A stretch of DNA of 60,817 bases, the filler included, from Dimargaris cristalligena (Eukaryota), in the NCBI GenBank assembly GCA_003614675.1. It is 2 parts of 2 records of this genome, joined end to end, with 100 filler letters (N's around TTAATTAATTAA, not from the genome) between each part and the next. Parts side by side here need not be neighbours in the genome. Positions count along the whole stretch, not along the records: positions 1 to 30,371 come from ML002460.1; 1 more part is not named here. One strand, written 5' to 3'. Below the pieces are notes generated by a model that made no database searches, was not told the origin of the DNA, and saw only the letters and a list, made by a program, of their open reading frames with translations. The position numbers were made by a program, and so were the translations under genes. Position 1 is the first letter of the stretch. Each line of letters starts with the position of its first letter. This document shows, piece by piece, positions 696 through 30,471 of this stretch.

Positions 696-1403
696 TCATT
701 CATTGCTGGCTGGGCAGTTGCTGCCCTGGCCACAGTTTTTAATCATCTTATGCCTATTTAGGTTATATTGAGAGGTATATGATTTAACACAAGAATCACA
801 GTTGGATTTTGCCTTCCCTGCATGGACCTGCATGTGCTGTTTGAAGTTATAAAAATAAGCAGTGGTAGAATCATATTCTTTACAAGTATGACTTCCATCA
901 ATTGGATTGTATTCCACTTTTTGAAGGTTGGTGGTTTGGGGTTGTTTGTTATTAATACATCATTTCAATGTCCGCCTAAACTTATGCTGAGAAGTCAGAT
1001 TAGGCCATTTTCCACAACTTAGATCAGAACCACTTGCCCGAGTGCGAAGGTTTGCGCACCATAATTCAATCTCTTTGAGGCATTGGCCAATGGTAATTGG
1101 CTGGCCAGTGCCATAATCCTGGCCAACACCCCTATCGGCCATATGATGTTCGGGAAAGCTCGCCTGGTCTGCTAAACCATAGCCACTGTGTTGGTCGCGG
1201 GACTCCAAAAGTTGCTAAATGGACCAAGGTTGGGGTGGAAGCACTTGGGTTAGATCCTGAAGTACTTCCTGTTGGCTGATGTCGAGGTCGTCGGCCTTGT
1301 TGAGCAGGTTGGTGATGCTCATGGGATTTTCATCTGGGGTGGAGGCACGACTGAGGGCGACAGAGCCCAGAAGACACAGAAAGGTTGTTCTGAAAATATA
1401 CAT
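696..1403 (-). pseudogene. Pseudogene of the secreted tandem C2H2 zinc-finger protein family (signal peptide + 2 fingers)
   Basis: ORFs 1215..1439, 960..1208 and 696..917 share one frame, separated only by TAG (1215-1217) and TGA (960-962). Read through from ATG 1403, the 236 codons (MYIFRTTFLCLLGSVALSRA...MSITNLLN...QPITIGQ...RASGSD...HAGKAKSNCDSCVKSYTSQYNLNRHKMIKNCGQGSNCPASNE*) are collinear with 3415..4149. Finger 1 has lost its second Cys (CKEY). Confidence 0.85.
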
Positions 1404-3414
1404 TATGTTGGTGACGGACGGTGGAGGAAGTAGAATCAAATAATGCCTGGTCAGTTAGGTAAGGACCTTTGTCAAGAAAAATTATAGGATAAGTGTATCC
1501 GTAACAGAACTCATTAATGTACATCCCAAATTGAATGGGGTGAAGTGGCGAAAAAAAAAAAGAGCAGGAGCACCCCTGTTTATATAATTTAAAAATGGAT
1601 GCCCAGTCGGCCAGCGAAATTACCCAGGTCTGTTGAAGTGCTACCATGCGCCTCCTGGAGTAACTAGTTCATACATTTGGACATATGAAAGTAATATCCT
1701 ACATGTTCAAGTATTTCACTGGACATAAATGAAATGCTCTATAATATACCCGAGGCAGAGGACAGCAATACTTCGTTGTAATACCGTGTCAGAAGACGGT
1801 CGTTCCCAATTATATTAGAAATTGTCTGAACGGGGGTCATCAAACGGGTTACAGCCAAAATATCGTTGCAGATTGACCTATGTCTCTCCTCCCCTTTCCT
1901 GTTTCATCAATGGAAACTGAATCAGTGCACCGCCAGGCCACAGTCGCAGGACGCAGGGATGCAGGTCGAACTATTAATACACCCTTGCGGTAGCCATATT
2001 TAGGCATGTATTAGCCAGCTTCTTATTAATAAAAAGGACCCGCCCTACAATGAGCGTTGGGCTTCAAGCCACCTGGACATCGCCCCACCCTTCCGAATGG
2101 ACATTCTATAGTAGTACAGGTAACTCTGGGAATTCCGGAGTCCAGCACTTCGGTCTTGTCTTGACCGAGGTGACTGCCCAATTAGTTGTACAATATCACT
2201 TGAATTGCTGTAGAGAGAACATCCCATCTTAATGGCAATATTGTGGGGGTGTAATTTAATGTGGTCCAATGGCTTATAGACCGAACCCCAATATAACCTA
2301 CTTAAAATAGATAAACACGGGTAGGAGGAGGTATTCATTATTGCGGCCGAAATATACTTCACTAATGGCCTTTTGGGCCAAGTATTATCAGTTGGGAGTG
2401 CAATTTCCGAAACTATACCATATGAAGTGGGGAAATTGAGGTATCTTTGTAAATTACATATTTACGGGTAAGTGCTAATGCATAGGTCGGTAATGGGCAT
2501 CCAAGAAGGACTTGCTTGGGGCAAGTATCAATGTAAATATATATCCTGAAATATCCGTGAGAGACAAGCTGTCAATTTAATTGATTTTGTATTTTTAGTG
2601 TCAAAATAGTCGACCAATTTAATACTGACGAGAGACCACGTTGGCCGACTTCCTGAAAAACGGCTTGGAAGGGCAGAGTGCCTCTCATTTGGTTTGAAGA
2701 TCAGTGCAAGTTGAGGGAGGGGGCATTTCAGTGACGTAGGCATATATAATAGGCGGATAAATATGACTGCTACGAGTGTGTTCCGATGGATTGACTGGCA
2801 GGCCAGTCTCTTGTGAATGAGGTTAAGTGATACCATAATCCAGTTCCCATTGGGTAAAAAGGAAAGGGGAAAGGGGGGCATAGACTAACTTGCTACAAAA
2901 CTTTGGTTGTAGTCAGAGAAACAACCATTTGGATAATGATAGCAATACTTTTGGGTACGATGGCCTTTGGATATGGTATCACAGCGGAGTGTTGCTGTCC
3001 TTTAACCCTAGGATGGGGTTGTATATACCATGTACCCCCAGTATGGTTCTTGCGAGAGTTAGGTTACACTTAAGAGCGACTTGGTCGTACGTTTTTACTA
3101 ACAAGACATGAAAACTGCAACCAGGGCGTCTTTGGGATTTCCCACCCCAACTGTTGTCATCAGTCGAACAGGTAACAGTTTTTAGGCTATAATAATCTAG
3201 ATACCCCCACCCCTGTTTTTCACCTCACCCTTCACCCCCCTTACATTTGGGGTACACTCTAATTTGATTATTTTACGGGTATACTTTTCATTACATATTA
3301 TTTCTTCGCTTCCGACTATTTTATCCGCTTTTTTGTACACTGCTCATCACAAGAATCTATATCTGACTAACTGTGCTTTAATAGATTATACAGTATTCAC
3401 TGTCCGTCGCCAAA

Positions 3415-4149
3415 ATGCGTAGTTTTGGAACAGCATGCCTGTATCTCCTGGGCTTAATTGCCCTTAGCCGTGCCTATGAACAGGTGAAACTAGCCATGGG
3501 CCTTAGGAACCTACTCAATGACTATACCTCCGAAAACAGCAACCGGGACGCAACTCAATATCGAGTACAAGAATCTCTACCCCGACCTTCATCAATTGGG
3601 CAACTTAAGGAGCCTTACGAAAAAATAACAGAGAATGGTTTAGCAATCCCGGCTCACTTTTCCGAACAAAACATGCCCGAAGAGGACGTTGGCCAAGTGC
3701 ACCCCCTTGAACAGCCAACCACCATTGGTCGGTTCACCGAAGAACCTGAATCTAGTTGCCCCGATCTTCAGGCCGAGGTCAGGGGTTCTGGTTCAGGCAG
3801 TAGAATCCACCCTGATACGACTTCTCTACCTAAGTTAAAGGATAACCCCCGTTGGCGCCTGAATGACGGACCACCCAAAGCCACCGACGTCCAAGCAAAC
3901 CACAATACAATTACGAGAAATTGGCATTGTTTTACATGCCAAAAATCCTATAACCGAAAAGCTGACCTCATTCGTCACATAAAACTGCATGCAGGGAACA
4001 GGCCTTTTAGCTGCAATTATTGTCACAAACGCTATACTGCCCAATATAGTGTGAGTAGGCATCAGAGGAAATCAAAAAACTGTAGACAGGGAAGCGACGG
4101 TTCATCCACCAATGAATCGTTCCAACCACCAGCGGCTTTATTTAGTTAA
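3415..4149 (+). CDS. Putative secreted protein with two C-terminal C2H2/C2HC zinc fingers (244 aa)
   Basis: Signal-peptide-like N-terminus MRSFGTACLYLLGLIALSRA. Fingers CFTC...RKADLIRHIKLH and CNYC...AQYSVSRHQRKSKNC are joined by a TGEKP-like linker (AGNRPF). Intronless, with AAAATG start context; paralogous to 696-1403 and 22618-23340. Confidence 0.85.
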   Translation: MRSFGTACLYLLGLIALSRAYEQVKLAMGLRNLLNDYTSENSNRDATQYRVQESLPRPSSIGQLKEPYEKITENGLAIPAHFSEQNMPEEDVGQVHPLEQPTTIGRFTEEPESSCPDLQAEVRGSGSGSRIHPDTTSLPKLKDNPRWRLNDGPPKATDVQANHNTITRNWHCFTCQKSYNRKADLIRHIKLHAGNRPFSCNYCHKRYTAQYSVSRHQRKSKNCRQGSDGSSTNESFQPPAALFS

Positions 4150-6353
4150 TATATGAGCTACTATTTCCGAGCCGACTCACTGAGTATAGCTAGTTTCCTA
4201 TTCCAAGATGCCTGACTGTTAACCTGTTCAATTTCCATACCAAACCTTAACCATGAAATAAACCATGTCCATGGCGGGACCATTTTTAAAAATTGTGGGC
4301 GGAGCTGAGTTCTATCTGCAAATTCAACCCCGGGTTACTCTGTTAGCAATATATTTTTCCCATCCCACCAGATTTATTATCCTAGACGCGCTGTCCTGTA
4401 CTTGGGACGTATTTTTTTATATCTATAATTTCTCCTTTATTTCATAACTGGCCTAATAGAACAAAACGCGGATATTTGCCCATGCCAAATGCAGTTCGCT
4501 CTTACACTTTCTCTTTGATTACTCTTTTAAATTTCAATTGGATGGCCGCCACAGTGGTTTGCCGCTCATAATCTATATACCAAAGGAGTTATTTTCCGTA
4601 AAAATGTATGGGGCTAACATATTTTCACCCAGACTGGGTATTTCCGGTCACCTGATTCCAAACTCTCAGTGCTCGATTAGAACTGCGGCCTAGTTACTAT
4701 CTATATACTATCTATATATCTAGCTATTATTTATACCTTTCTTATGTCACAGCATTCGTCACAGAGAGAGCACACCCGTACCGCAAGGTGAAATGAGGGG
4801 TCCCAGGGGGGTTTATTTCCTCGGTCTCTCGTGAAGTGAGCAAGAATCCAGTGAAAGGAACAAGAATGCCGTAGGGATTAAAGACAAAATTATGGATTTT
4901 GTGCAATCATGCTCGTTTTTGCAGTGCCTGGAAAATCAATACTCGTACACCCAAAAATCCATACGGGTACACTTTTATTGGGTTTAGCTTTGGGAATACC
5001 CCCGGCAAGTGCCTTTAACTCAATTGGTACGGATGATTATCATATAGAGATGCCAGTAAATAGAGACGGGTCAATACAGGGAATTGACATAAACAGAGGA
5101 GGATCATAAGCTACTAATTTAATAGGTTATATTATATGCCAGGAGGATACTGAGGGGCTGGTAGAAAAGGAATACTAACGAGCTTGGTCTGGGGTTGTTG
5201 GCACCAGGAAGGCTTTGCTGGAAACAGCAGTGTCTTCGGATAAATACTTAGCTAAAAAAGGTAGACTCTAACAGTAGCAGCTGGGGAGTTGACTAGGGGA
5301 TCATTGTGGTACTTGGCGTACCTTTGAAACAATGCCATGTCACTAAGGACTAATGTGGGCGAGTCACTCATAAAGCTCTCAGCCCTACTAAGTTGGATCA
5401 GCCAGTGCAATTTCCTCTATAATTCGGACAATGATACAGTGTCTACATGGATAATGTAGGAGCTATGGATGGAGTTCTTCTTATGATTTAATGGGCATCA
5501 TCGAATTCGCTACCATAAACTGGTGAGCTAGTATCTAGAATTTTTAGTATCACCTATATCAATTAGCCAGTATGGTATTTCCAGGTATGGCTAGGTTAGC
5601 TCTACACTTTGTTTAATAGTCCAGAATAGTCACAGTTAATTACATATGGTCCATGAATGTATCCCGCCAGGTAGGAGAGTCAGGTCACGACAGGGGGTCG
5701 TAGGGCCAAAATGCTGGTCTCTGGGAGACGGAGGAGAAGGCCGATCGGAAGTCGATGCTAATTATGTAGTCGCTAACAGAGAGACAGAGCGGTGATAGAA
5801 AGATCCATATATAGTAATTCAACGCGTGATAATTTATTTATAAGGCTGAATCGATTGAGTGGATTAACTTAAAATTGTAGTTACTTTAGCCTCTAATCTT
5901 GCAGGTTCCTTCTCTGAAAATATAAAGGGATAATTACCTTAAAATATATTTATTCGAAAACGTACTAGGCATAAAAACATCGAAAATACTCGGGAGCGAT
6001 AATGTTACATTTGGTCGAGGAGGACTAGTGTTTAAGGGAGCCGAGTAGGGTGTGGGGTCTTTAAGATATATATGGTTATTTTATTAGAACATAAAGAACC
6101 CATGTTATGGCGAGCTAACCCCTATTTTATACTCTGGGCACATTAGTATTGATGGTAAGTCTTGTAACTGTTCGCTCCCCACTTGGTGGTGCACTCTCAC
6201 TGAGGGAGTCAGGTGACCACTCTAGTTCGGGGGGACTGGTTCCCTCTGATGGTTGCAATGACCATTTGCGAAACTAGGTGTCAGACTCAGACTTTGGTTT
6301 TGGCTCGGGATCACGTTTTGGATAATGCTCAGGTGTATTTTCCCCATCTTTGG

Positions 6354-6356
<3 letters not shown>

Positions 6357-6384
<28 letters not shown>
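6357..6384. repeat. (AT)n microsatellite
   Basis: Uninterrupted AT dinucleotide run; similar runs at ~7755-7771, 8627-8640 and 9219-9242. Confidence 0.9.
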
Positions 6385-6388
<4 letters not shown>

Positions 6389-8846
6389 TAACAGATTTAA
6401 ATGAAACGGACTGTAAAACTAAGTGAAATCAATCTTATAAGGGTCTACGCGGTCATCAGCGAAGGGACCTTCGTTATCGACGGCCTCTACTTTTGAATTG
6501 GATCTCATTTTTATGGATGGCCTTCCACTTATAACGTTTAGAGGCGATGAAGGATTCCTTAATAGAGGCCGGTGGCAGCACTTGTTTTGAGATAGGCTGG
6601 ATTATTTTGGAAATAATGATTGTGGCTGATAAATTCAAGTTCAAACTTATATTCCTCCAATCCTGTACTATGCAGCAATACCGATAGATACATGTGCACG
6701 TGCCTGGCTCAAGGAATATGCTCGGCTCCACCATAAGACACTGCTGCAGAGCTTAGGTGAAAAGTTGTGGGACATGACAGGTGGGGTTTGACTCAAATGA
6801 TACCTTGTCAATTAAGCAGTCCCAATAAGTTCGAATACACTTATTTTTATTTTAGAGAGGGCTGGCAATACTTAAATGAAGTTTATCTCCACATAAATTT
6901 GAATATTACCTATTACAAACCCCCCCCCCCACCCCAGCGCCTTTGCTCGGGTATAATGCATCCAATTCCAAGGTGGACCTAAGAAGATTATATGAAACAC
7001 TCATCGACACAATGTGGTCTGTACTCCCCGTTCCCCTCCCTATCGACCATTACCGGATCGACAATGACACACACCAGCATGTGCTTTGGGGGTCGGTTGG
7101 GTGTATTGTAGAAGGGATATTAATATTGCCAAACCTAGCCTCACACCATATGCTAAAGGACTAAAATTTCACACTTTCATGTAGCACGCTCGTATCACCT
7201 AACCTCGTGCGTTTACCCTGGCCATTGTTGGTGCATAACTTCTCGGGGATATTTCTTACTATTGGGAGAGAAGAAGTGGGAGAGAGAAATGACCAAGGTT
7301 CGGCTAATAGTATATAACCCGTGGAAACTAAAGGCTATGCCGTTTTCATAATTATAATTGCCACTAGAGTCTGCGGCCTGGTCTAGTTTGGAGCAAAGGC
7401 CTTCCCAACCAAGCAACCCCGTAGTAATATCCATATATACGGTTGGAGGAAGTCTGAACCGACTGCAGCTATAAAGAGACTACCATAAAAGTACTTGGGT
7501 TCTTTCTTAAGGAGCTGCACCTACCAGGGGAAACAAGGGGGCGCAACTACGGTAGGTGTTCGGAAATATTACGGGGGTTTTCATACATAATAATAAGAAC
7601 AGGGGGGATGCTTTGTGGGGGCATTATGGCCTAGGTTAAACCAACTCAACGGAAACAAGAAAGGACACCTACTCCTATGAATCACTGTTACATATGATCT
7701 AAGGCCAAACCTAAAAGATGTCAGTAATTATAAGTGTTGGTAGTATTATAGAGTATATATATATATATATACGAGTAAGGAATGTTGGACTGAATCCCCG
7801 TTAGGACCGGATGTGCTTCTTTCTTAACTCTAATCCATTCTACTTTTCCGAAATGGTGGCGTGCGTTTGTGGTACCCTATGGGATTGAATGTGGGCCCAT
7901 GATACATTATTACATATTGACAGGACCAACCCCCCCTATAATATTACAGCTCTTTTTCACCCTACACCATCCTCCTCCCCTTTTTTACTGACCATCCCGC
8001 GTGCTAGCCAGCCCGCGGGTCTAAAAACTACGCCATCTCAAAATAAAAAATTATCGCTGCTAACGGAGTGATTGGAAATATGTAAAAATGGGGGATAGCC
8101 ATCTAGCTTTATGAAATGTCAGTGGTAATGGCCGGCGAAGGGGGGGAAATGGTGTGTATGGGTGGGTGGGTGAGAGCATGGTGGAACTGCCGAGTAACCG
8201 ACCAAGTCAGCTGAGTGAACAGTTTCGGGCACACGACATGGTTATCGGTTATAATAGATTCAACTACGGAGACTCCCCAACCGTCCGAATATGGCAATCA
8301 GATTATGACATCTCTAATTGCACAAAGGGAATACGTCCATGGTAAGTCAGTTTTTCAACTAGTCACCATTGCCATGTTTCGGCACACACACACGTATATC
8401 CATTAGGCTTTATTTAATTTGGAAAGCGAGCTATTCATGGTCGGGAGGTTCTAATAGCCGAAAAGGGCTGTCAAACTCCACAGGTCTACCTTCTTACAGT
8501 TACACCTTACCTGCTAGTGACTGTAGAGCTACAACATTAGTTTTGGGCCAGGGGAGGGTGGTGGAGTAGAAGCAAAAAAGGTGTCGAAAGCATCCCACGA
8601 AAACAACCGATAGGGCTGGTCCCTAGATATATATATATATAAGGGAGCATTGCCAGTTCAATAGGGTTCAGTATTCAGATCTGGCCAACGCTTTCCTCCC
8701 CACCCCTATATCATTCACCGCAACCCCGTTGACCTCTAGTCTAATACCACCAACATACCCCTTCTCCGTCTATTTTATGTCCCCTCAGCTGCTCTCCACC
8801 AGTAATCCTGAACCTTAGCACCACCACCATTATCATCAGCATCATC

Positions 8847-9146
8847 ATGCAGTTCCTCCCAGTGTCCACTTGGGCCATTTTGGTTACCTTGATCTCCATG
8901 TCCGCTACCGCCGTCGCCTCCCCCACCGGTATGAATAGCCCCGATCATGACCACTACTCAATCGACCTGCCGGTGGTGAATCAGGCCACCGCCTCCTCTT
9001 TCCATGGGGCCACCTCCGAAAGGTTTTCTCGTCCGGGCCGAAACTATAATACCAACGGCAGTTGGAAATGTAAACCCTGCGGTATTACCTTCGATACCAA
9101 ACGGGACTGGGCCCAGCACCAGTTGGATCATTTGTTTGGTTCATAG
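8847..9146 (+). CDS. Small putative secreted protein with a single C-terminal C2H2 zinc finger (99 aa)
   Basis: Signal-peptide-like MQFLPVSTWAILVTLISMSATAVA|SP with an A-V-A cleavage motif. The C-terminus WKCKPCGITFDTKRDWAQHQLDH fits C-x2-C-x3-F-x8-H-x3-H. A TATA-like (AT)n run lies ~210 nt upstream. Confidence 0.75.
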   Translation: MQFLPVSTWAILVTLISMSATAVASPTGMNSPDHDHYSIDLPVVNQATASSFHGATSERFSRPGRNYNTNGSWKCKPCGITFDTKRDWAQHQLDHLFGS

Positions 9147-11053: not shown

Positions 11054-13246
11054 TCACTGGCAAAAATAGGGGTGATTGGACTGCATTTGGACCTGTGCTT
11101 GTGCGATGGCCTGATTATGGGGTTGCTGTTGGTGCTGGGGTTGTTGTTGGTGCTGTTGCTGCTGGGGTTGTTGTTGGTGCTGTTGCTGCTGTTGTCGCTG
11201 TTGCTGAAACAAAAGCTGTTGGCGGTGGTGTTGCTGTTGCTGTTGCTGGATAGTAGCAGTCATCTGTGATTGGGACACCATTACCACTGGAAGACCGGTC
11301 AAACTTGCGGTAGAATTGGCATTAACCTCCGCATAGGGCGAATCCACACTAACCGAGCTTCCCACCGGGAGGGCCGGTAGGGCCCCGGCGATTTGGGCTG
11401 TTGTAGGTGGAGCTGGCTGCTGTGACTGCGATCGGTTAGTCTGGGGGACTGCCATCATGGGGTGAGCGTGGGTGTGGGGCGGGAGTGACTGCTGGGGTTG
11501 CGTCTGGGGGTGATGGTGGTGATGATTTGGACTAGGATGTTGCTGAAACGAATTAAGGGCCGGCGAATTGGTGACCGAAATTCCACCTCCTCCTCCGGCA
11601 GGCGCCGCTGCCATCGTTGCACTAGGGGTAATCATAGATGAATCAACAGCGCCCACGTACTGATTAGCCGACGCCTCGAGTTGTTGACGCCGTTCGAGAA
11701 GACCCTTGAGGCTCTTGAGTAATTCAGCACTCTGCTCATGAGTTTGCCCCCCCGCCAATTGATTAGGTACCGCAGTACCGTTATGGGGGGCGTTAGTATG
11801 GTTGCTATTAGTGGCACTCATGGTAACGGGCGACACAGTGGACAGTGGAGTGGACATGGCACCTCCTAATGTCATCGTATTGACATAGGAATTAGGCAGT
11901 TGAGGGGTGACAGTGGAAGCAGTAGTAGTGCCGATTGGGGGTGGGTGTGGGCTCAAATTCGTAGGGGCGGGCATGGTCACTTCCATTTTTAGGTAGGGTT
12001 CGGAGTGTGCCAAACTGCTGATATCAGGTTCAGACTTAGCGATGATGAACGAGCCCACATTGGTGCCCCCCCTCGGGGTATTTTGCGGGACGGGTGCGGA
12101 TGTATTCGCGGCGAGGGCCGGTGTTTTGACAGGGGTAGTAGATGGGGCGGGATTCTTCTTGGCGCGTTTCCGGTTGACCCGTGGAGGCTTAGACGGCGTA
12201 TCAGGGGCAGCTGGGGAGATGCCTGAGTCTTTGCCGGACGGAGGGGCGGGGGATTTTGTGGCAGTAGGGCTAAATTCAATGGAATGCACCTTACGCTGAT
12301 GGGTGCGCAGATTGCCCATCTGGGTGAACTGCTTGGAGCACCCGTCAATATCACAAAAGAAGGGCTTCACGTTAAGGTGGGTCCGCTCGTGGGTACGCAA
12401 ATTACCGAGCTGGGAAAAGCCCTTGCCACAGCCCTCGTGGCAGCATTTGTAGGGCCGTTCGCCCGTGTGCCGCCGCTCGTGGGTCTTGAGGTTACCCAGC
12501 TGGGTGAATGACTTGTCACAGTCCTCGAAACTGCACTTGTAGGGGCGGTAACCGGTGTGGGACCGTTCGTGGATCTTGAGATGGGCCCGTTGGTAGAACA
12601 TTTTACCGCAGGCGGGTTCGAGACACGGGTAGCAGCGCTGGCGTTTGGCATTGGGGTCCCGGGAATTATTCGTGTCTCCATCGTCTGAGTCGTCGTTGGA
12701 GTGATCACGGCGATTACCAGACCTCTGGTTATTTCCACCACTGCTGCCACTACTGTCGCCCCCTTTTCCTTCCTCTCTACCGCCATTAGTATTTCCCGCG
12801 TGATTCGAATCTGTGGGTGTTCGCCCGTTTCCGCTATAGGAATGTGAGCCATTAGCATTGGACGAGCCCCCTCCACCGCTGGTGGAGTTATAACCATGCC
12901 CAGACCGCTGGGTGGCCGCCACCGAAGCCGGATTGGTTGGTTTCCGTGGGCTAGTAGAAGAATTGAGCAACAAAGCACCGTCGGCTGGATGAAACCATCC
13001 TGGGATGGCGGGGTGAATTGGGCGGAGATCCGTGGGCGGGTGGGGTTTAGTGGGACTGGGCGACGGTGACAAAGAGGAGGGAAGCAAGGAGGGCGACACG
13101 TGGCGGGGAGCAGCAATCAACAGTGGGATGCGTGGTGTGGTAGAGGGGCCTTGGAAAGAGGCAGTGGTAGGCATCTGCGGATGCTTAGTGTCACCACTCG
13201 ATTGGCCCCAGGAACGGACCGACCCTTTCAGTATGATTTCGCTCAT
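11054..13246 (-). CDS. AZF1: AZF1-like C2H2 zinc-finger transcription factor (4 fingers, C-terminal poly-Gln)
   Basis: 730-aa ORF with four tandem fingers, HTGERPY-type linkers and QLGNLKTHERRH helices typical of Azf1. Basic NLS-like RKRAKK; poly-Q tail. Confidence 0.8.
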   Translation of the reverse strand: MSEIILKGSVRSWGQSSGDTKHPQMPTTASFQGPSTTPRIPLLIAAPRHVSPSLLPSSLSPSPSPTKPHPPTDLRPIHPAIPGWFHPADGALLLNSSTSPRKPTNPASVAATQRSGHGYNSTSGGGGSSNANGSHSYSGNGRTPTDSNHAGNTNGGREEGKGGDSSGSSGGNNQRSGNRRDHSNDDSDDGDTNNSRDPNAKRQRCYPCLEPACGKMFYQRAHLKIHERSHTGYRPYKCSFEDCDKSFTQLGNLKTHERRHTGERPYKCCHEGCGKGFSQLGNLRTHERTHLNVKPFFCDIDGCSKQFTQMGNLRTHQRKVHSIEFSPTATKSPAPPSGKDSGISPAAPDTPSKPPRVNRKRAKKNPAPSTTPVKTPALAANTSAPVPQNTPRGGTNVGSFIIAKSEPDISSLAHSEPYLKMEVTMPAPTNLSPHPPPIGTTTASTVTPQLPNSYVNTMTLGGAMSTPLSTVSPVTMSATNSNHTNAPHNGTAVPNQLAGGQTHEQSAELLKSLKGLLERRQQLEASANQYVGAVDSSMITPSATMAAAPAGGGGGISVTNSPALNSFQQHPSPNHHHHHPQTQPQQSLPPHTHAHPMMAVPQTNRSQSQQPAPPTTAQIAGALPALPVGSSVSVDSPYAEVNANSTASLTGLPVVMVSQSQMTATIQQQQQQHHRQQLLFQQQRQQQQQHQQQPQQQQHQQQPQHQQQPHNQAIAQAQVQMQSNHPYFCQ

Positions 13247-15498: not shown

Positions 15499-17703
15499 CT
15501 AATGGTAACGCTCATGAGGTAGGTAGGACCGCTCGGGGTAAAATACATAGTCTAGCGGGTAGTTGCCGAGGTTTTCCAAATCGGACGTATATCTGTTGAG
15601 CGGTAGAATGAAATAGAGAATATTCGGGAATATGTAAGAGAAGCCAGTAAAAACGGTCAATATAGTATCAGGCGAATTCAGCATACACACGTAAATCTAT
15701 CTATCAAGATATATGCATCATAAAAATAGATGGAGTGGCACAGAAAACACGAGACGGCCTCAGCACTCCAGCAACTTACACATCGGCAAAAGAAATCACC
15801 TTATTGGCAAAGTACGACGGGTTCTGATGGGCCCGGAACACCGACCCAAACTGCCGGTTAAACGGCAGCATTGACGCCCGACGCACCCGGCGCCGTTCAT
15901 CACGCCACGACTCAAGCATCGCACTATATTCCCGGTACGGCTCATTATCCTCCTCGTCCAACCGCATCACCGCCGACTGCGCCTGGCCCAACAGTTGTTC
16001 CAGCCGGGTCATCCACTGCCGCATGCGTTGGTACCCTTCGGTATTCTGGATCCCGATTTCCCGGCGCAGTTCGTCAATAATGGCTCCGGTCTTCCACCCC
16101 TGTTGCAGAGTCGGATCACGGAGGTCCGAAAAGACGTGGTCGCCAATGTACATGACCCGGTGTCCCGACCAACCCGTGAATTGACTGAATAAATTGAGAT
16201 TGCCGCCCTGGTACACTTCACCCGGTAGAAGAGTATCCACGTACGCCCAGGAGGTCCCTCCTCCTCCTCCTCCTCCTCCTGCTCCTCCTCCTAATACTCC
16301 GGGGCTGGTACTACCGTTGCTGGTGAACCGGGTATTAAGGCGTCGGAAAGGGCGTCGGGAATTGTAGAACCCCGGTTTACCCGCCGATACAATCACCACA
16401 TCAAACAAATCGATCCAGCGGTCCAGACCCGTCACTACCGATAGACCCTTGTCGACGAACTCGAAGCTGCTGTTGGTCAGCAAAAAGAGTTTCTTACCGC
16501 TCCCCTTCAGCTTCTCCAGGTAGTGCACAATGCGGGGGTTGGGTTCCAAATAATCCGTGATATTGGCCATGATGCGCTGGTGGAGGGGTCCGGGTCCGAT
16601 GCCCCCGTGTCCGTGCAGCACCTGGGCCATACCCCGGATATCGTCGGCCAAATAGCGCGGATGGAACGGAATGTTATGGTCCAAGAAGTACTGAACCACG
16701 TCGGCCAACAGGCAGGCCTCGGGCAAACTGAACAAATCGTTGAGGTGATGCAGATTATGCGTCAAGTAGTTCGGGGCCACGTGTTTGCCCCGGTGCCGGT
16801 CGATGACCACCTCGGGGTTCTTGATTGTTTCGCGCCCGTAGTGGACTCCGTCGACTTGGATGTTATGGAAAGCATCCAACTTGAAAAGCCAGCCCGTTTC
16901 AAAGTCATAGTGCAGGCCGCGGATGGCGAAATCGGGGTCGTATTCGGTGGCCCGGAGTCCGCGGGGGTAGCCCAGTTTGTCGATCAGCATATCCCGCAGC
17001 ATGCTGTAAATGGTGATGGGGAGCATCGGTGTATAGTTGGCCAACGTGTAGTCGTAGTCGAACCCGTACACCGATACTCGGCTGAGCAGAATTTCGTTGT
17101 TCGGGAAGCTACAGGCGGTATTGGATAAATTATTAAAAGACCAGGATAATAATACCAGCCCAATCAGCGATGGGTGTGTGTGGGTGGATGATTAATAAAT
17201 GCGTAGCACAGGGCGCGCGGGCATGGGTGCCCAATTACTATTGGAGGGGGGGGAAAAAGACCAGCCATCGCAGGTGTAACAGGTGTAATATACCCCACGG
17301 CGGTGTACCGTCCTCTAGGGGATATGCAGGCCTCTACCAACCAGCCCCATTCACGAAGCAGCCTAACGGTTTCCTTAACTTACACATCGTTGGGTCGAAT
17401 TGCCGTCCCGACGGTCTGGGACAGTTCCTGCAGACTACTGGCCGAGGCCGGCGTGCCGTGTTCAATGCAGTTCTTTTCCCATTCGAATTGGGCGCGGTAG
17501 TACTGGGTCAAGTAGCTCAACTCAATTTCGGACGACATGCAACGCACCGAGGTCGCCGAGGGGAGAGGGGTAGGCTTTGTTAGCCGAGAGGGTTTGGGGC
17601 ATCGAAGGGATATCAAGGCAGAACCCGTGAATAGACCCGGGGGTCGAGACACTAGGGAGTGAAAGGCCCGGTTGAAGGGGGCCGTCACCGTATTGCGCAA
17701 CAT
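15499..17703 (-). CDS. HAD-superfamily 5'-nucleotidase domain protein (NT5DC2/3-like), 3 exons: 17703-17384, 17108-15780, 15592-15499
   Basis: HAD motif I (YGFDYDYTL), LLTNS, KP and YIGDHVFSDL motifs. Introns 17109-17383 and 15593-15779 (GTAAGT...AG) restore DVFPNNEILL and FADVYTSDLENL...LPHE. The N-terminus is Arg/Ser-rich, resembling a mitochondrial presequence. Confidence 0.9.
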
Positions 17704-19150
17704 GGTGGTGGGGGGGAGAGGTTTCTCTCTACCTTGGAGGTGTGTCGTCAGGCTTGAGGGGATTAGAAAGAATAGAGACGTGTTAAGAAGAAAAGCCGGC
17801 GGCTAACAAGACCCCGGGGGCACCGCTACGTATGTATATATAATATTATGCCTGGCTTGTGTATTATTAAACAATGCTAATGAGAAAGAACCGCAATGGG
17901 CGATGACCAATGGGAAAGAAGGTAAAGTAAAGTAGCCAAAAGTACACCAGGAGGAGGGACTTTTAGGTTTGAAGCGCCCATCTCCCTTTCACCTATTATT
18001 TACCCGCCCCGCCCCGCGCCCCTGCAATTGCCCGATTGGAACTGAACGGGCCAATACAGTTAACAAATTCCCCCCCCCCTCCTTATCTTCGCTCTCCACT
18101 CACTCACTCACACGCACCACTACTGCCTTGCCTTTCGGGGATATTTCTCGACATTGAACCCAGCACGTGCCGCATCCAACGACAGGCGAGAATAATAGAT
18201 TTGGCCATGACGACATTATCCAAGGCGACCTTTTTAAATTTTTGCACCTTTAATGGACCATTAACACGCGATTAATTGGGTTCTAAGCTATATCCTTAAT
18301 TGGAGGCGGTGTCTATTACGTAACGATTAAGAGCACTACTCTATACTACCAACGCCTATGTCGGTCTCCTCGTTTTCTATTTGCCCTAGGACGGCTTTCC
18401 ACCGGACCGTGGTTAGGGTACGCAACGGCGGTCAAAATGCCAAGGGTTTGCATAAGTGCATACTCGTTTTAAAGGGGGCAGCCTAAATCACATGGTGCAC
18501 AGTCCTTAAATACTCCCTAGAAGGGCAGCACCCATGGGCCACAATGATTTTTTCATCTACCAACATCGTAGCAGTTAATCCCCGACCTCCAGAAATTAAA
18601 TAATTGGCCCTTTTAGTCGAGTTATATATATGGGGCTCTCCTCCTCCGCCATGCCCTCACAACCTAACAAAAGAATATACCTATATGCGCCGATAGAGTA
18701 TGTCAAGTCAACTGGAAAGGGATCGTTTATGAATCAGTGGTATTACTGATGGAGAAAAATCATAGATCGAGGAGTGATATACAAACAAAACTGCCTGGTA
18801 TCTAAAGACGATACAAGGAAAAAGGAAAAAGGGGCGTGGCGTAGGACTGGAATGTATTTGCATACAAGAGAACAGCATTGAATAAAGATGGGTAAGGGCT
18901 ACAACAACTTGGGGTACTTTCATTCAGAGATACCTTGTTACATCCACCCACCACCTATACATGTGCGGAATTCGGCACAACCGTACCCAATTTGTAATGA
19001 AATGTGAATATGAGAATAGCAGGGAAATCCATTCCTAAGTAGAGAAATGCCCCTCATCAAACGAAGGGTTCATTATACAGCCGCCAGGCCTAACTTTTCC
19101 CGGATATAACTTAGACGAGGCCCCTCAGCTCATTCCATCCAGATAGATGC

Positions 19151-20683
19151 CTAGGCCCATTCCCGGTCAGGTAGTATCAGGGGCCCAACAAGAGTCCAAG
19201 CATATAGACCCATGGCCAACCAACTCGACAGCACTTTGGCCCACACCGCGGCCATACTCCGACCAATGATGGTTAGTTCGCCTGAGTCGCCGATATCCAC
19301 GGTGTTCCAACTTGTTAGAAGCATGGCCACATACATGGCGGCCATCGCGAAAATAAAGTGGAAGAACGTGTAGTTGTAGGTCACGCCGTACTTTTCATCG
19401 TCCAGGCGACGGCGCCGACCGGCTGGACTATCGTTATCAGCATCAGCATCAGCATCATCGTCATTATCGCTGTCATCCACGGCCCGGCGGTAACAGCCCC
19501 CGCTACCACTCTCCCGGCTCGGTTGCTGGAGAGCCGAGGCCGGCAAAGCCCCACTGGCGACGGCGTCGATCAGGGCTTGGTTACGTACGCCGTCGCCGTC
19601 GGACATGGCGTAGTCGCTACTGAGCAGGGGTACCGCGGAGGAAGCGTTTTCTTCGTCGTAGTCGGCGTTATGGATCAGCGAGCGTCCCTGGGTGGCCGCG
19701 CGGGACGTGGAATAGACAATGGCCACGATGGTGAATATGGCACCGATGGCAACGGCGGTGGTGCGGGTGCTGCGGCTGCGGGCCAACGGGTTACACATAC
19801 CCAGGTCCCCCTCTCCACCCGCATCGTCGGCGGGCGTCGGTTCGTTAATCAGGGCACTGGCAATCAAATAGGTGGCGTAGGCGGTGACCATGGCGGCCTG
19901 GGCCAGACCGGACTTGGCGTTGGCTTCCTGCACGGCGGGATGAACGGCCAGCACCGACACCACCAGGGCCACCAGCAAATTCACCGTAACCAAAAACTGG
20001 TTCAGACTGCACCCGGTTCCGGCGAAGAAAAGGTACAACAGAATGGTGCCCACGGCGGTAAACAGAAAAAGGCCCCCGGAGGACCCCACCAGGAGCCACT
20101 GCCACTTGGTTTCCCCCCGCGTTTCCCAACGCTCCAGACATAGTTCACACCAGTGGTGGGCCAAGTCCACCAGGAGCACCAGCTGGATAAGGATAAATAA
20201 GGTAGACCCGACCAAACTGACGTAATTCCCCCATACTTCGAAGAACCCGTTGGGAATGAAGAAAGCCAAGACCACCAGCCCCAGCCACAGGACCACTTTC
20301 GGGCCCCACCAGCCATTTTGGATGGCCGCGCGGGGTTCCTTACTACTCTCGACCCCCAAGACCAGCAACCCATTCACCGCATGGAATAGCGTCAGGGCAA
20401 AACACCACCGGTGGACGGCCAGAATGCCGTAGCATTCGCCGGAGGGACACTCGAGGTGTAAGTAGCCGTACGTCCATTCCTGCAGGCGTTGCGCCGCCCA
20501 GTCGGTCAGCATGAGCCAGGCAAACGTGGAATTGAGGAGAAAGACCAGGGCGTACATGATGCGCGTGGACGTGGACCCCGATAGGGAAAGGAGTTGACAC
20601 GTGCAGAAACAAGCGGCCGAACTGAAACACGAAAGGGCTTGGGCGCCGAGGCAGCCCAGTGACGGGAGGAGAAACGGAAACAT
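19151..20683 (-). CDS. TMS1: Serine incorporator (SERINC/TMS1/TDE) membrane protein
   Basis: 510 aa, multi-TM, Cys-rich N-terminus. Family motifs RAAIQNGWWGPK, SGLAQAAMV, YNYTFFHFIF...YVAMLLTSW and a C-terminal WTLVGPLILPDRE. Confidence 0.93.
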   Translation of the reverse strand: MFPFLLPSLGCLGAQALSCFSSAACFCTCQLLSLSGSTSTRIMYALVFLLNSTFAWLMLTDWAAQRLQEWTYGYLHLECPSGECYGILAVHRWCFALTLFHAVNGLLVLGVESSKEPRAAIQNGWWGPKVVLWLGLVVLAFFIPNGFFEVWGNYVSLVGSTLFILIQLVLLVDLAHHWCELCLERWETRGETKWQWLLVGSSGGLFLFTAVGTILLYLFFAGTGCSLNQFLVTVNLLVALVVSVLAVHPAVQEANAKSGLAQAAMVTAYATYLIASALINEPTPADDAGGEGDLGMCNPLARSRSTRTTAVAIGAIFTIVAIVYSTSRAATQGRSLIHNADYDEENASSAVPLLSSDYAMSDGDGVRNQALIDAVASGALPASALQQPSRESGSGGCYRRAVDDSDNDDDADADADNDSPAGRRRRLDDEKYGVTYNYTFFHFIFAMAAMYVAMLLTSWNTVDIGDSGELTIIGRSMAAVWAKVLSSWLAMGLYAWTLVGPLILPDREWA

Positions 20684-21149
20684 GGCTGTGGGGAGCCGGT
20701 GAATGCAATGGAATAGAGATAGAGATAGAGAGGGAGAAGGGAGAGGGATTCCGGACCTTAAGGGTAAACGGGGTGCCCAAGGATAATAAAGGAGGGGGGT
20801 ACGGAAATTGAAAGGGCAATACGGAGAGAAATAGCTAGCGTAATGTATCTAATTAGAAACAAGAGGGAGAGTTGCACCGAGAAGTTCACGTAGAACTGAA
20901 AAAGGCATGAGAGAGGAAATAGAAGCGCAGTATAAAAATAGCCAAGAAAAAGAGCACTACCAAGGTTTACTTATCATTAGAGTGATTGGTAATGAGAGAG
21001 AAGATACGCGGGGGAAATCCCCCAAAGGGGTCTCGTCAGTCGATGTGAAATAATACCCCACAGTCACATTGGGAAATATTAATCACGGGTGCGCCAGCTC
21101 AAAAAATTAGGGAATATTTGGGTTTGCCGGTGGTTTAGTGGATTGACAT

Positions 21150-21238
21150 TTGGGTGAAATTCAAACTAGCTGTATAAGGTTTTACATAATATGTGTATAG
21201 GCAAATATATGTGATAATAGTTTTTAACCAGTAATATC
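21150..21238 (+). repeat. Partial copy of a ~140-bp dispersed repeat
   Basis: TGGGTGAAATTCAAACTAGCTGTATAAGGTTTTACATAAT...TTTTAACCAGTAATAT matches 38559-38648 and the reverse complement of ~57073-57160. Confidence 0.75.
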
Positions 21239-22617
21239 TGCACTAACTTTGGTAAAGGGCACAATACTCATTGCAGCCTAAGACATCCAAACAACTTCAA
21301 TACCTCCAAAGGGCACCGTTTAAAATCAGTTTGGTTAACACACAAGACACTCAAATTTTTAAGTATATCCGCACCTCAAATACACACGGATTTCTTGTAT
21401 ATCATTTTATCTAGTTAAATTATAGGGCTATAGGAGTATACTATTTTACCTTCCCCTCCCCACCCTGGTGAGCATTTTTTTGGTTACCATTAACTGGCTA
21501 TTGCGTTGATACTTATCCGCTATTCCGTGTATTTCTGGGACATCCCTCTCGCCCCCGATTATTTTGTTCTGCTTAAGGGTTACACGCCCACCTGACAACA
21601 ATTGACCCAATGTATGTATGTATGGTGTCCATTCTGTAGGACTCTATCCTCCTTCCTCCCCTCCCCCCCATGCAAATTCCCCAATTCCCAGTGCATGCCA
21701 TTGGATCTTAACCTTCACCCACAAACTTGCATTACACCGTACTCCCATAATACTTTGAATACCGTAGAGAACCTTATTCAGCCCATAGATGAACAACAAA
21801 GAGCCCACCAACCATATAGCAGATAGCGCGGCCGAAAACAGACTGAAGGGGCAGTACAAGGCCATGATATATCACCATGTAATACAATGGAATGTTCGCT
21901 CGAAGGGATGATGTAGCACCAAAATAGCTCCAAGGTCAACACTGGCTGTAGGAAAGGGTAGTTTCAGTTCCAAAGGAGATCAGACATGTTAAATGGGTCA
22001 TCGAGGCTTCCATAAGAGTAAATGTAACCTGCCTTATGTACCTTCCATGTGCAACTATGGCTTCGTACCACAGCCATCCGGTTATTGATAGGCGGGAGTT
22101 AGATATGAACCAGTATGTAGCGGCGGGACCTTGGCTGGTCAAGGGGAGAAATGACACACATTCTTTTAGTGAAAAACCTATCTTTAAACGATGACCATAC
22201 TAGACAGCGCCCCGGTGGCGGGCTGCCATTCATTAGACCCTGTATGAAACTGCTTGCATTGTGTAGCCCCGCCCTAATGTTGATACACATGATGGCAAGT
22301 AGTCCAAAATGTCCTTGCCTAATTCTAGAATAAACGGGGCGGCTTGAAAGCCGCAGGGCAATGCTTGTCTAAATTTATCTGGGTGGTACAGAGTCACCAG
22401 TTGAACAGGCAATGTTCTTAAAACCATATAAAAAGGCCAAGCCCCGCCCCTCTATACCCAAACACCATCCACCACGTTTGGGATACACATTGACCTATTC
22501 CGCTACAACCATATGCACCTTTCCATTATATCTTCGCCACCAACTGTTTTAATAATTCAAATCTATCTGCCCTGGTTTTGTTAAGCACTGCATCTCCGGC
22601 CGTCTATCGTCAACAAA

Positions 22618-23340
22618 ATGCGTTTCACTAGAACAGTCAGTCTGTTTTTCCTAGGCTCACTCGCTGTCAACCGGGCCTCCGAACAGGCTAACCATCCCAA
22701 TGATATCGACGAACTCCTTTCCGTCAGCAACCCCAGCAGTATCTGCGACGAAGAAGCTGCATACCTAACCAACGATCCTTTTTTCCATACTTGGTCAACG
22801 GATCAGAACCTAGTGTATATCAGTCAACTAAGTAGTACCCAGTTGGCCTACTACAATGCCTTTCTCGAACAAAACAAAAACAACGAGGGTGTTGAATCCG
22901 CACAAGCTAATGAACAACCGGCCACTATTGATCAGATCACCCCAGGATCCTCCGGGACTATCGGTTCATGTTCCCGCGCCGAAGCCAGTGGTTCCGGTTC
23001 GGGAAGTGGAAGTCTCCCCTCTCCAGCGACCCAGTCCTCCTCCACCCCAGTGGCAATGAAGACGTTCACCTTCAAAATAAGATATCCATACCTATCCAAT
23101 AGAGAAATGCAATACCGGGATTCGGGTTCTATGGAGAAACAATTTGGTTGTCCATTATGTCCCACCGATTTTACCCGTCCGAGTGACCTTGACCGCCACA
23201 TCCATATACACACAGGCGACAAAAACTTTCCCTGCCTTCGGTGTGGTAGAGAGTTCGCTCGTAAAGATGCCCGGAATAGACATACATCGAGCTCAAATTG
23301 CTCTAGTCAAGGTGCCGAAGGGCCCTCTAGCAACGAATGA
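22618..23340 (+). CDS. Putative secreted protein with two C-terminal C2H2/C2HC zinc fingers (240 aa)
   Basis: Signal-peptide-like MRFTRTVSLFFLGSLAVNRA. Shares EQPATI, EASGSGSGS and a terminal NC..QG..GPSSNE block with its paralogs. Fingers CPLC...RPSDLDRHIHIH-TGDKNF-PCLRC...RKDARNRHTSSSNC. TATAAAAA at 22427. Confidence 0.87.
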   Translation: MRFTRTVSLFFLGSLAVNRASEQANHPNDIDELLSVSNPSSICDEEAAYLTNDPFFHTWSTDQNLVYISQLSSTQLAYYNAFLEQNKNNEGVESAQANEQPATIDQITPGSSGTIGSCSRAEASGSGSGSGSLPSPATQSSSTPVAMKTFTFKIRYPYLSNREMQYRDSGSMEKQFGCPLCPTDFTRPSDLDRHIHIHTGDKNFPCLRCGREFARKDARNRHTSSSNCSSQGAEGPSSNE

Positions 23341-30371: not shown

Positions 30372-30471
30372 NNNNNNNNNNNNNNNNNNNNNNNNNNNNN
30401 NNNNNNNNNNNNNNNTTAATTAATTAANNNNNNNNNNNNNNNNNNNNNNNNNNNNNNNNNNNNNNNNNNNN
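30372..30471. other. Assembly gap/contig linker (N run + TTAATTAATTAA + N run)
   Basis: TTAATTAATTAA at 30416-30427 puts stops in all six frames and is flanked symmetrically by Ns. Confidence 0.97.

Follow-up and report, generated by a model that had tools for sequence, protein, structure and literature searches.

Predicted secreted zinc-finger proteins of the mycoparasite Dimargaris cristalligena as candidate nuclear effectors

Described secreted zinc-finger effectors and the Dimargaris proteins

For Magnaporthe oryzae, Kim et al. 2020 reported 20 predicted-secreted proteins that contain a DNA-binding domain, which in half of the cases is of the C2H2 type, and MoHTR1 and MoHTR2 were demonstrated in host nuclei (PMC7672089). 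In MoHTR1, MoHTR2 and MoHTR3, a signal peptide occurs together with a C2H2 finger at the C-terminus; the three proteins are secreted and enter host nuclei (PMC7672089, PMC10189765). They form a published exception to the premise of the preliminary description of the DNA studied here, namely that linker-joined C2H2 fingers are kept out of the secretory pathway (PMC7672089), and because such effectors have been published, the novelty implied in that description was overstated; the idea of a secreted C2H2 nuclear effector is not new in kind. According to the published descriptions, MoHTR1-3 resemble the Dimargaris family in being small (<300 aa), in the succession of an N-terminal signal peptide (predicted for the Dimargaris proteins), an intervening region and a C-terminal C2H2 domain, in a distribution restricted to one species, and in a producer that is a biotroph feeding through an intimate interface. 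In contrast to the single C2H2 domain described for the MoHTRs, the Dimargaris family has two linked fingers, the second being of the C2HC type, while the additional gene g4 described below has a single one; moreover, the host would be a fungus and not a plant, and the producer is an early-diverging fungus of the Zoopagomycota. In the profile search, no homology to the MoHTRs was detected, the N-terminal profile of the family matching nothing beyond one species label. Secretion, host-nuclear localisation and DNA binding have been demonstrated for MoHTR proteins, whereas they are putative in the Dimargaris family.

The RXLR and CRN effectors of oomycetes, modular host-translocated families in which the N-terminus is conserved and the C-terminus variable, provide a further parallel: as in these, the conserved part that defines the family consists of the signal peptide and the N-terminal region next to it, a short conserved motif, here [ILV]-x-[DNE]-[FLI]-[LI], lies 8-14 residues past the predicted cleavage site, and signs of birth-and-death evolution are found in the family. 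However, the Dimargaris proteins have no RXLR, LFLAK or other known motif, and the sole case of a different C-terminus (P0004/P0011) is probably a fused gene model. A translocation role for the N-terminal region would be pure conjecture.

D. cristalligena is a haustorial biotrophic mycoparasite. The Dimargaritales are described as parasites of Mucoromycota that act via an appressorium and a haustorium (PMC9866270), and they are treated as obligate mycoparasites (PMC6784888). Effectors of biotrophic mycoparasites are not treated as a topic in the main text of these two genome papers: that of PMC6784888 has no occurrence of 'secreted', 'effector' or 'zinc finger', and in PMC9866270 'secreted' occurs three times and 'effector' twice, one of the 'effector' passages concerning fungalysins. 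Among the literature matches listed, none joined mycoparasitism with a nuclear effector.

The gene family and its N-terminal leader

The stretch of DNA analysed here (the window, 60.8 kb) contains three collinear paralogues, g1, g2 and g3 (Table 1), at the positions given in the preliminary description, which had recognised them as a family of ~240-codon genes. In tblastn searches of the window, g1 matched g3 (E 6e-32, 34% identity) and g2 (E 1.5e-18, 29% identity) over the full length, and no additional copies were found. The frames of g1 and g2 stay open over 240-244 codons in DNA of ~45% GC, and g3 can likewise be read through in one frame, which is interrupted by a TAG at 1215-1217 and a TGA at 960-962. 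The family is surrounded by AT-richer DNA with few ORFs; together with the g3 pseudogene and the truncated or fused gene models discussed below, this favours the earlier view of duplication and pseudogenisation in gene-poor DNA. GC3 is 0.43 in g1 and 0.49 in g2, whereas seven other ORFs of the window range from 0.58 to 0.78; the low values fit weakly expressed, young or decaying genes equally as well as effectors. Two DNA runs differ in g1 by four non-synonymous changes and one synonymous change, all within the spacer, indicating a constraint no greater than neutrality on a tiny count of five changes; in a neighbouring 730-aa nuclear transcription factor, five of five changes, among those listed, are non-synonymous. 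At the g2 locus, a contig of the second DNA run (X5) spans 21169-23331 with two differing letters and one gap.

A fourth gene, g4, was overlooked previously. It lies 4.7 kb from g1 and has the same architecture of a leader and C-terminal finger, with one finger only; two public annotations include it as a gene model (98/99 identical). Its leader has no K/R in the n-region and A-V-A/S at the putative cleavage site, as determined by the heuristic. Outside the finger, no relatedness to g1-g3 was detected by hhalign, which aligned g4 to the family over 31 columns around the finger only (probability 56%, E 1e-4).

Table 1. Features of the Dimargaris genes within the window; a slash marks a predicted cleavage site.
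Feature	Position	Strand	Description	Basis
g1	3415..4149	+	intact, 244 codons; leader, disordered spacer, C2H2/C2HC finger pair	ORF scan
g1 leader	3415..3474	+	residues 1-20: n-region MRS, uncharged hydrophobic core FGTACLYLLGLIAL, then S-R-A/Y	heuristic scan
g1 finger 1	3928..3990	+	CFTCQKSYNRKADLIRHIKLH, C172-H192	regex scan; PDB phmmer alignment to ZNF568 tandem fingers
g1 finger 2	4012..4083	+	C2HC variant; C200, C203, H216, C223	alignment columns
g1 upstream block	3189..3414	+	TATA-like TATAATAA, C-rich run, conserved TTTGGGGTACAC, start context CCGTCGCCAAAATG	
g2	22618..23340	+	intact, 240 codons; architecture as g1	ORF scan
g2 leader	22618..22677	+	MRFTRTVSLFFLGSLAVNRA; Asn at -3 atypical	heuristic scan
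g2 finger pair	23149..23301	+	C178-H198 (C2H2), C206-C228 (C2HC)	
g2 upstream block	22427..22617	+	TATAAA 191 nt 5' of ATG; conserved elements as g1; one ATG at -105	
g3	696..1403	-	pseudogenised copy; finger 1 degenerate, finger 2 intact	
g3 upstream block	1404..1584	-	TATAAA 181 nt 5' of ATG; ATGs at -121, -111	
g4	8847..9146	+	99-codon ORF; leader MQFLPVSTWAILVTLISMSATAVA/SP, ~50-residue spacer, one C-terminal C2H2 finger (9069-9131)	

The hydrophobic leaders noted earlier are present in all three paralogues (MRSFGTACLYLLGLIALSRA, MRFTRTVSLFFLGSLAVNRA and MYIFRTTFLCLLGSVALSRA) and end in (S/N)RA. They comprise one or two basic residues, 10-14 uncharged hydrophobic residues, small residues at -3/-1 (S-R-A) and acidic or polar residues directly thereafter. 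We scored leaders by a home-made heuristic (positive n-region, uncharged hydrophobic h-region 7-15 residues long, small residues at -3/-1, 15-30 residues overall), and g1 and g3 display every one of these features, with S-R-A at residue 20; in g2 an alternative site, S-L-A/V after residue 16, obeys the (-3,-1) rule. Of the window's 44 ATG-ORFs with a length of 100 aa or more, one passed the heuristic in its strict form; it is crude and conservative, since it missed g2, owing to the Asn in position -3, as well as a further ORF that is likely secreted. The leader is shaped like a cleavable signal peptide.

Among the seven aligned members of the family, the leader is the best-conserved segment, with a mean pairwise identity of 0.50 compared to 0.16-0.34 elsewhere; it has no indels over 20 codons, and the uncharged core is uninterrupted in all seven. 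In-frame stops occur 11, 12 and 18 codons 5' of the three start ATGs, and a conserved promoter-like block with an A(-3) start context precedes the first ATG, with no ATG between the TATA-like site and the start codon of g1. A methionine at or near Met28 of g1, which itself has a good start context (GCCATGG), occurs in only two of the seven, g1 and g3. The absence of indels, the identity, the upstream stops, the distribution of Met28 and the promoter-like block strongly suggest that the leader is translated and constrained.

As described before, neither a second transmembrane segment nor an ER-retention signal is apparent: in the mature part of g1 and g2 no 19-residue TM-like window was found (Kyte-Doolittle maximum -0.22 and 0.67, respectively), and KDEL/HDEL is absent from their C-termini. 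The N-terminal core with its basic n-region is the sole hydrophobic segment. A membrane-tethered transcription factor of the ATF6/SREBP type was considered and rejected, as the fingers would face the lumen and the mature part has no TM-grade window of 19 residues.

Zinc fingers, spacer and taxonomic range

The family had been described as carrying two tandem C2H2 fingers with a TGEKP-like linker. The finger pair and the linker hold, and the zf-C2H2 scores of g1 (29.0 bits) and g2 (33.2 bits) exceed the whole-protein gathering cut-off of Pfam PF00096 (25.2 bits), whereas the C-terminal piece of g3 remains below it (18.4 bits). In a regex scan, the pattern C-x2-4-C-x12-H-x3-5-H was matched by finger 1 in both g1 and g2 and by the finger of g4, but finger 1 of g3 is degenerate by the loss of one Cys and a 3-residue insertion, and finger 2 is of the C2HC type: in g1, g2 and g3 the last His is missing and a conserved Cys is located 5-6 residues past the first His, with ligand columns invariant across the three window copies. 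The seven-residue H-to-C linkers (H-AGNRPFS-C, H-TGDKNFP-C, H-AGKAKSN-C) are TGEKP-like, and in a phmmer search of the PDB both fingers and the linker align to the tandem fingers of ZNF568, CTCF and Zif268 with 25-32 bits per two-finger unit. The family thus shares with classical Krueppel/Zif268 fingers this linker and the C-x2-C-x12-H-x3-H arrangement of finger 1; it differs from them in having two fingers only, in the exchange of the last His in finger 2 and in the junction to a secretion-type leader. Arg at helix positions -1/+6 and Asp/Ser at +2/+3 of finger 1 fit the Zif268-type contact pattern. In the AF2 model of g1, pLDDT is ~83 for finger 1 and only 58-62 for finger 2. No clear classical NLS was found; the sole basic cluster, RHQRKSK, is located within finger 2 of g1. 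Zinc ligands and leader are kept despite an overall identity of ~30%.

The spacer is predicted to be disordered (AF2 pLDDT <50 at residues 37-162 of g1). It is less poorly conserved than had been stated, as it carries conserved motifs, including the one downstream of the predicted cleavage site, and as a profile of residues 1-167 alone retrieves the paralogues at E 1e-12 to 1e-24.

The N-terminal profile gave eight matches at E<=1e-3 among 1,835,955,588 proteins, seven of which belong to the family and represent two pieces of g3 and five other loci. The named family matches are all labelled D. cristalligena, and one identical record bears a Syncephalis label as well. As judged by these matches, the family is lineage-restricted and comprises, within one species, the intact g1 and g2, the decayed copy g3 and five or more additional loci. 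The exact g2 protein is present in the public collection (P0009); full-length g1 is missing and is represented by a 51-aa finger fragment (P0015), and g3 appears as two differing models, one with an intron drawn over the first stop (P0001) and one ending there (P0002). None of the public models from loci outside the window has an intact finger pair: P0003, P0006 and P0007 stop ahead of any finger, P0012 derails inside finger 1, and P0004/P0011 continue into an AI-2E transporter-like protein. New in the present analysis are g4, the five further loci, the conservation of the leader and the truncated or fused gene models.

Candidate effectors and competing explanations

We estimate a probability of roughly 45% that the family consists of secreted candidate effectors which would enter the fungal host and bind host DNA in its nucleus. 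The parasitic lifestyle predicted earlier fits, as every homologue found carries the label of a haustorial biotrophic mycoparasite (PMC9866270), and a secreted-effector role is therefore regarded as the most likely one. The earlier interpretation is supported in part: the effector role itself is favoured by the anatomy and conservation of the leader, the lack of another membrane segment, the DNA-binding type of the fingers, the parasite label, the MoHTR precedent and g4 as a second architecture of this kind, and the implied novelty was overstated. The putative cleavable signal peptide would direct the protein into the secretory pathway, and the mature protein, predicted to consist of a mostly disordered region of ~150 residues and a two-finger Krueppel-type nucleic-acid-binding module, might then be taken up by the fungal host cell and imported into the nucleus, where the module would bind host DNA, in analogy to MoHTR1-3. 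Points against this reading are that the Cys/His zinc sites must survive the oxidising ER, and that in finger 2 the last His is missing and the AF2 model is of low confidence; the low GC3, the strain differences in g1, the lack of a clear classical NLS and of intact finger pairs in the public models from outside the window, and the failure of g2 in the strict leader scan likewise speak against it.

The proteins might also enter the secretory pathway without serving as host-nuclear transcription factors, their site of action being the haustorial interface, the cytoplasm of the host or the extracellular space; in that case the fingers would bind protein or RNA, and the function would reside in the conserved N-terminal region. 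The family is defined by this region alone, which persists in the fingerless models P0003, P0006 and P0007, and the lack of a clear NLS and the C2HC type of finger 2 point in the same direction; CCHC-type derivatives of the classical finger, such as those of the FOG family, make contacts with proteins. However, finger 1 and the linker are of the canonical DNA-binding type with Arg/Asp contact residues, and the absence of fingers from some models may stem from truncated annotation or from pseudogenisation. We consider this explanation improbable. We see still less of a chance that the proteins are ordinary intracellular zinc-finger regulators of the parasite, in which the N-terminus is no working signal peptide but a conserved helix, a weak or dual-targeting signal, or a part bypassed by a downstream start. 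C2H2 pairs are overwhelmingly found in nuclear proteins, Met28 of g1 is in good context and g2 has Asn at -3; yet such a methionine is restricted to two of the seven members, no segment is better conserved than the leader with its unbroken core, the stretch from the TATA-like box of g1 to the leader ATG is free of other ATGs, and a core of 10-14 residues followed by acidic ones is unlike a mitochondrial presequence or a TM anchor.

It appears just as unlikely that the family is young, decaying and largely non-functional, residing in repeat-bearing AT-richer DNA, and that the intact ORFs are recent survivors with no current role. The pseudogene g3, the truncated or fused paralogues, the low GC3, the 4:1 ratio of non-synonymous to synonymous strain differences in g1, the mostly disordered mature protein (AF2) and the incomplete public annotation of g1 would all be in accordance with such a decay, but two 240-codon frames remain open, all zinc ligands and the leader persist at low overall identity, the five strain differences in g1 spare leader and fingers, the g2 locus is nearly invariant between the runs, and the upstream blocks are conserved.

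Returning to the secreted-effector reading, an extended form of it seems rather doubtful: that the mycoparasite independently evolved clustered transcription-factor effectors which are carried over the haustorial interface and reprogram the mucoralean host via its promoters. The signal peptide and the conserved disordered N-terminal module would carry the proteins across this interface, and the two-finger module, or the single finger of g4, would bind host promoters.

Effectors have hardly been studied in biotrophic mycoparasites or in the Zoopagomycota as a whole. If not secreted, the proteins are no more than a zinc-finger family of small size and rapid evolution whose N-terminus is unusual. 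If they are effectors, they would represent a further case, independent of the MoHTRs, from an early-diverging lineage whose hosts are themselves fungi. If the extended form holds, the first 23 kb of the window would form a small effector compartment with four such genes, and the transfer of DNA-binding effectors from one fungus to another would be described for the first time. Delivery to host nuclei would widen the MoHTR paradigm from plant hosts to a fungal host and to a lineage far from the Dikarya, and the proteins would offer short, tractable DNA-binding modules with mappable host targets.

Paralogues and their surroundings

The window is eukaryotic DNA whose long ORFs are poor in introns. 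GC content is 40-46% over the first ~11 kb, where ORFs are few, and 50-58% in the gene-dense remainder. Two intact paralogues and a broken one, each with a leader, a spacer and a C-terminal zinc-finger pair (g1, g2 and g3), had been proposed in the preliminary description, and this is borne out by the ORFs, the in-frame stops and the tblastn E-values. Searching each copy against the window by tblastn revealed full-length collinear matches between g1 and g3 (E 6e-32, 34% identity), g1 and g2 (E 1.5e-18, 29% identity) and g2 and g3 (E about 1e-10 to 5e-12), and no further family copy in the window; to judge from these alignments, the paralogy is far above chance level. GC3 is 0.43 in g1 and 0.49 in g2, compared to 0.58-0.78 in seven other window ORFs.

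Features of the window discussed in the text
Feature	Coordinates	Strand	Description
g1	3415-4149	+	intact ORF, 244 aa
g2	22618-23340	+	intact ORF, 240 aa
g3	696-1403	-	one frame throughout, broken by TAG 1215-1217 and TGA 960-962
g4	8847-9146	+	99-aa ORF between g1 and the 730-aa zinc-finger factor
730-aa C2H2 factor	11054-13246	-	Gln/Ser/Pro-rich, four canonical C2H2 fingers, no leader
Contig pile-up	6018-6684		summed depth about 4,500-5,200
Contig pile-up	20692-21358		summed depth 17,000-52,000
2278-codon ORF	30416-37252	-	3' end broken by N runs
604-aa ORF	51515-53329	+	leader MRYLQWALLATSGWLTGALA, followed by SE

About 200 nt of upstream sequence can be aligned among the three loci, with an additional common block 350-580 nt upstream in g1 and g3 only. 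In all three, the sequence upstream of the ATG carries a TATA-like element (at a distance of 180-225 nt), a C-rich run and a conserved TTTGGG(A/G)TACAC block, and the start codon lies in an A(-3) context. From the TATA-like site to the leader start, g1 contains no other ATG, g2 one and g3 two.

Among nine other ORFs of the sparse regions Pfam identified no transposon domain, the sole match being the weak finger through which g4 was reached. The g4 product begins with a leader (MQFLPVSTWAILVTLISMSATAVA, followed by SP) and, after a short spacer, carries a single canonical C2H2 finger at its C-terminus. Two public annotations include it as a gene model (98/99 identical). When compared with the g1-g3 family, 31 columns around the finger aligned and nothing beyond (hhalign probability 56%); by this comparison g4 has no relation to g1-g3 outside the finger.

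A repeat-finder scan of positions 1-24000 yielded solely the finger repeats within the 730-aa factor. In all three DNA runs contigs pile up in two regions, while the summed depth in other covered bins is roughly 10-950, and many loose contig ends occur near 21147-21237. The two regions are evidently dispersed repeats beside the leader and finger genes; tRNA and Rfam scans, which included both, gave no match. The N runs at 30372-30415 and 30428-30471 (44 bases each), which break the 2278-codon ORF, mark where the window is joined.

Leader, spacer and fingers

In g1, g2 and g3 the leader starts at the first in-frame ATG past a stop located 11-18 codons upstream and comprises one or two basic residues, a hydrophobic core of 10-14 uncharged residues and (S/N)-R-A, followed by polar/acidic sequence. 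Both the alignment and this anatomy agree with the original description of a hydrophobic leader ending in this motif in all three copies. Signal peptides were predicted by a crude, conservative von Heijne-style heuristic, weaker than SignalP, which fully flagged the leaders of g1 and g3; that of g2 fails its strict form solely through Asn at -3 and has an alternative S-L-A|V site after residue 16. The strict heuristic was passed by one of 44 window ATG-ORFs of at least 100 aa, and its sensitivity is limited since it overlooked the leader of the 604-aa ORF. The mature parts contain no TM-grade segment and no KDEL/HDEL, as anticipated by the earlier statement that a second TM or ER-retention signal is lacking.

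Among the conserved islands of the seven-member family alignment (A4) is the motif [ILV]-x-[DNE]-[FLI]-[LI] (g1 residues ~28-36), which occurs in all seven members 8-14 residues past the predicted cleavage site. Others are NEQPxTIDQ and a GSGSGSG run; the public protein model P0006 lacks this run, and in g3 and the public model P0007 it is degenerate. An AlphaFold2 model of g1 based on the seven-member alignment has a mean pLDDT of 47.8, with residues 37-162 below 50, consistent with a disordered spacer; finger 1 reaches ~83 and finger 2 58-62.

The domain zf-C2H2 scores above the Pfam cut-off in g1 and g2, and both fingers together with their linker align with the tandem fingers found in ZNF568, CTCF and Zif268, scoring 25-32 bits for each two-finger unit (phmmer, PDB). 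The proposed pair of tandem C2H2 fingers nevertheless stands only in part. Finger 1 is canonical in g1 and g2 (C-x2-C-x12-H-x3-H) but degenerate in g3, where one Cys is lost and three residues are gained. Finger 2 is without the final His in all three window copies, with an invariant Asn-Cys 5-6 residues past the first His, and by this residue pattern is a C2HC variant. C2H2 motif matches number eight in the window as opposed to 0-2 in its block shuffles. The pattern is found in five stop-to-stop ORFs of the whole window: g1, g2 and g4, each of which has a secretion-type leader, the 730-aa factor and one probable chance match. To judge from its domains, the 730-aa protein is an ordinary nuclear factor; within its poly-Gln-coding tail the runs have a 27-base deletion at 11133 relative to the window.

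Relatives of the family and lifestyle of the fungus

An N-terminal profile of 168 positions, which excluded the fingers, was searched against 1.84 billion representative proteins at E<=1e-3. The eight hits were two pieces or models of g3, five other loci (P0003, 175 aa; P0004, 1491 aa; P0005, 114 aa; P0006, 123 aa; P0007, 156 aa) and one false positive, the repetitive Cys/Gly-rich P0008, ruled out as a family member as it matches the low-complexity part only, in 13 stretches. The g3 models P0001 and P0002 equal g3 letter for letter, except for an intron that P0001 draws over the first stop; the g2 protein is present exactly in the public collection, and g1 solely as a 51-aa finger fragment. 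Word-index searches gave no hits among 281 candidates with the single g1 sequence, three among 2931 with the family alignment (two of them family members, the third a generic multi-finger protein) and two among four with the C-terminal finger alignment (fragments of g1 and g2 themselves). For g1, the ESM Atlas returned only generic fungal C2H2 clusters (0.93-0.94) with few shared features.

Every named member of the homologue clusters is labelled Dimargaris cristalligena, and by the g2 and g3 matches the window evidently stems from this species. One identical 156-aa record (P0013/P0007) is filed under this species and also under Syncephalis pseudoplumigaleata, which points to cross-labelling or cross-contamination rather than to a gene present in both species. 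A parasitic lifestyle had been predicted from sequence alone and holds for the order: in the parts of the literature consulted, Dimargaritales are described as biotrophic mycoparasites which attack Mucoromycota via appressorium and haustorium (PMC9866270), and are treated as obligate mycoparasites (PMC6784888).

Relative to the window, contigs of a second DNA run (X5) show five listed changes in g1, four non-synonymous (S54Y, Q94R, I131S, P133S) and one synonymous, all in the spacer, leaving leader and fingers free; the contig covering g2 differs by two letters and one gap over 2162 nt. In the neighbouring 730-aa factor, five of five listed between-run changes are non-synonymous; all these counts are too small for a selection test.

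A candidate effector family

With a probability of roughly 0.45, we regard the g1-g3 family as lineage-restricted candidate effectors, secreted and equipped with a nucleic-acid-binding module, which would act in the manner of MoHTR1-3 from the rice blast fungus; we infer secretion, expression, uptake, nuclear import and DNA binding. It is rather unlikely that the proteins are secreted and yet are no host transcription factors. That they are intracellular regulators with a non-functional leader appears doubtful. The first 20 residues are gapless across the seven family members, and the leader is the best-conserved segment, with a mean pairwise identity of 0.50 versus 0.16-0.34 in five other segments; its differences amount to 21, 23 and 30 at codon positions 1, 2 and 3, without a clear excess at the third. 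As read from the alignment, the leader is part of the gene. Among the seven, only g1 and g3 have a Met at or close to g1 Met28 (nt 3496), and an exact look-up in the protein collection found no g1 protein starting there.

A decaying gene family is likewise improbable, and the state of the public models bears on it. Outside the window, none of the public family models contains both fingers intact: P0003, P0006 and P0007 end ahead of any finger, and in P0012, the longer member of the P0005 cluster, the finger opens with FTCPQCPKSFA and then derails. P0004/P0011 share the N-terminal 157 residues of the family, followed by a membrane protein of ~1,300 residues with an AI-2E transporter domain, most likely a fused gene model; if the fusion were real, the N-terminal module would be portable. 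As read from protein models alone, the missing fingers may reflect annotation truncation, mutation or genuine domain loss.

The earlier observation holds, subject to corrections, and g4 is added to it. Its interpretation, that leader and finger proteins are exported into another organism's cells to act there as transcription factors, is partly supported: the parasitic lifestyle speaks for it, but its novelty in kind does not stand, since MoHTR1-3 already represent secreted DNA-binding effectors. In the portions of the reports drawn on here, Magnaporthe oryzae has 20 predicted-secreted proteins with DNA-binding domains, half of them C2H2, and secretion, entry into rice nuclei and DNA binding were demonstrated for MoHTR1 and MoHTR2 (PMC7672089), while MoHTR3 has an NLS in addition to its signal peptide and C-terminal C2H2 finger (PMC10189765). 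If the effector reading of the g1-g3 family is true, its novelty would lie in an independent origin, in a host that is itself a fungus and in a producer from an early-diverging lineage.
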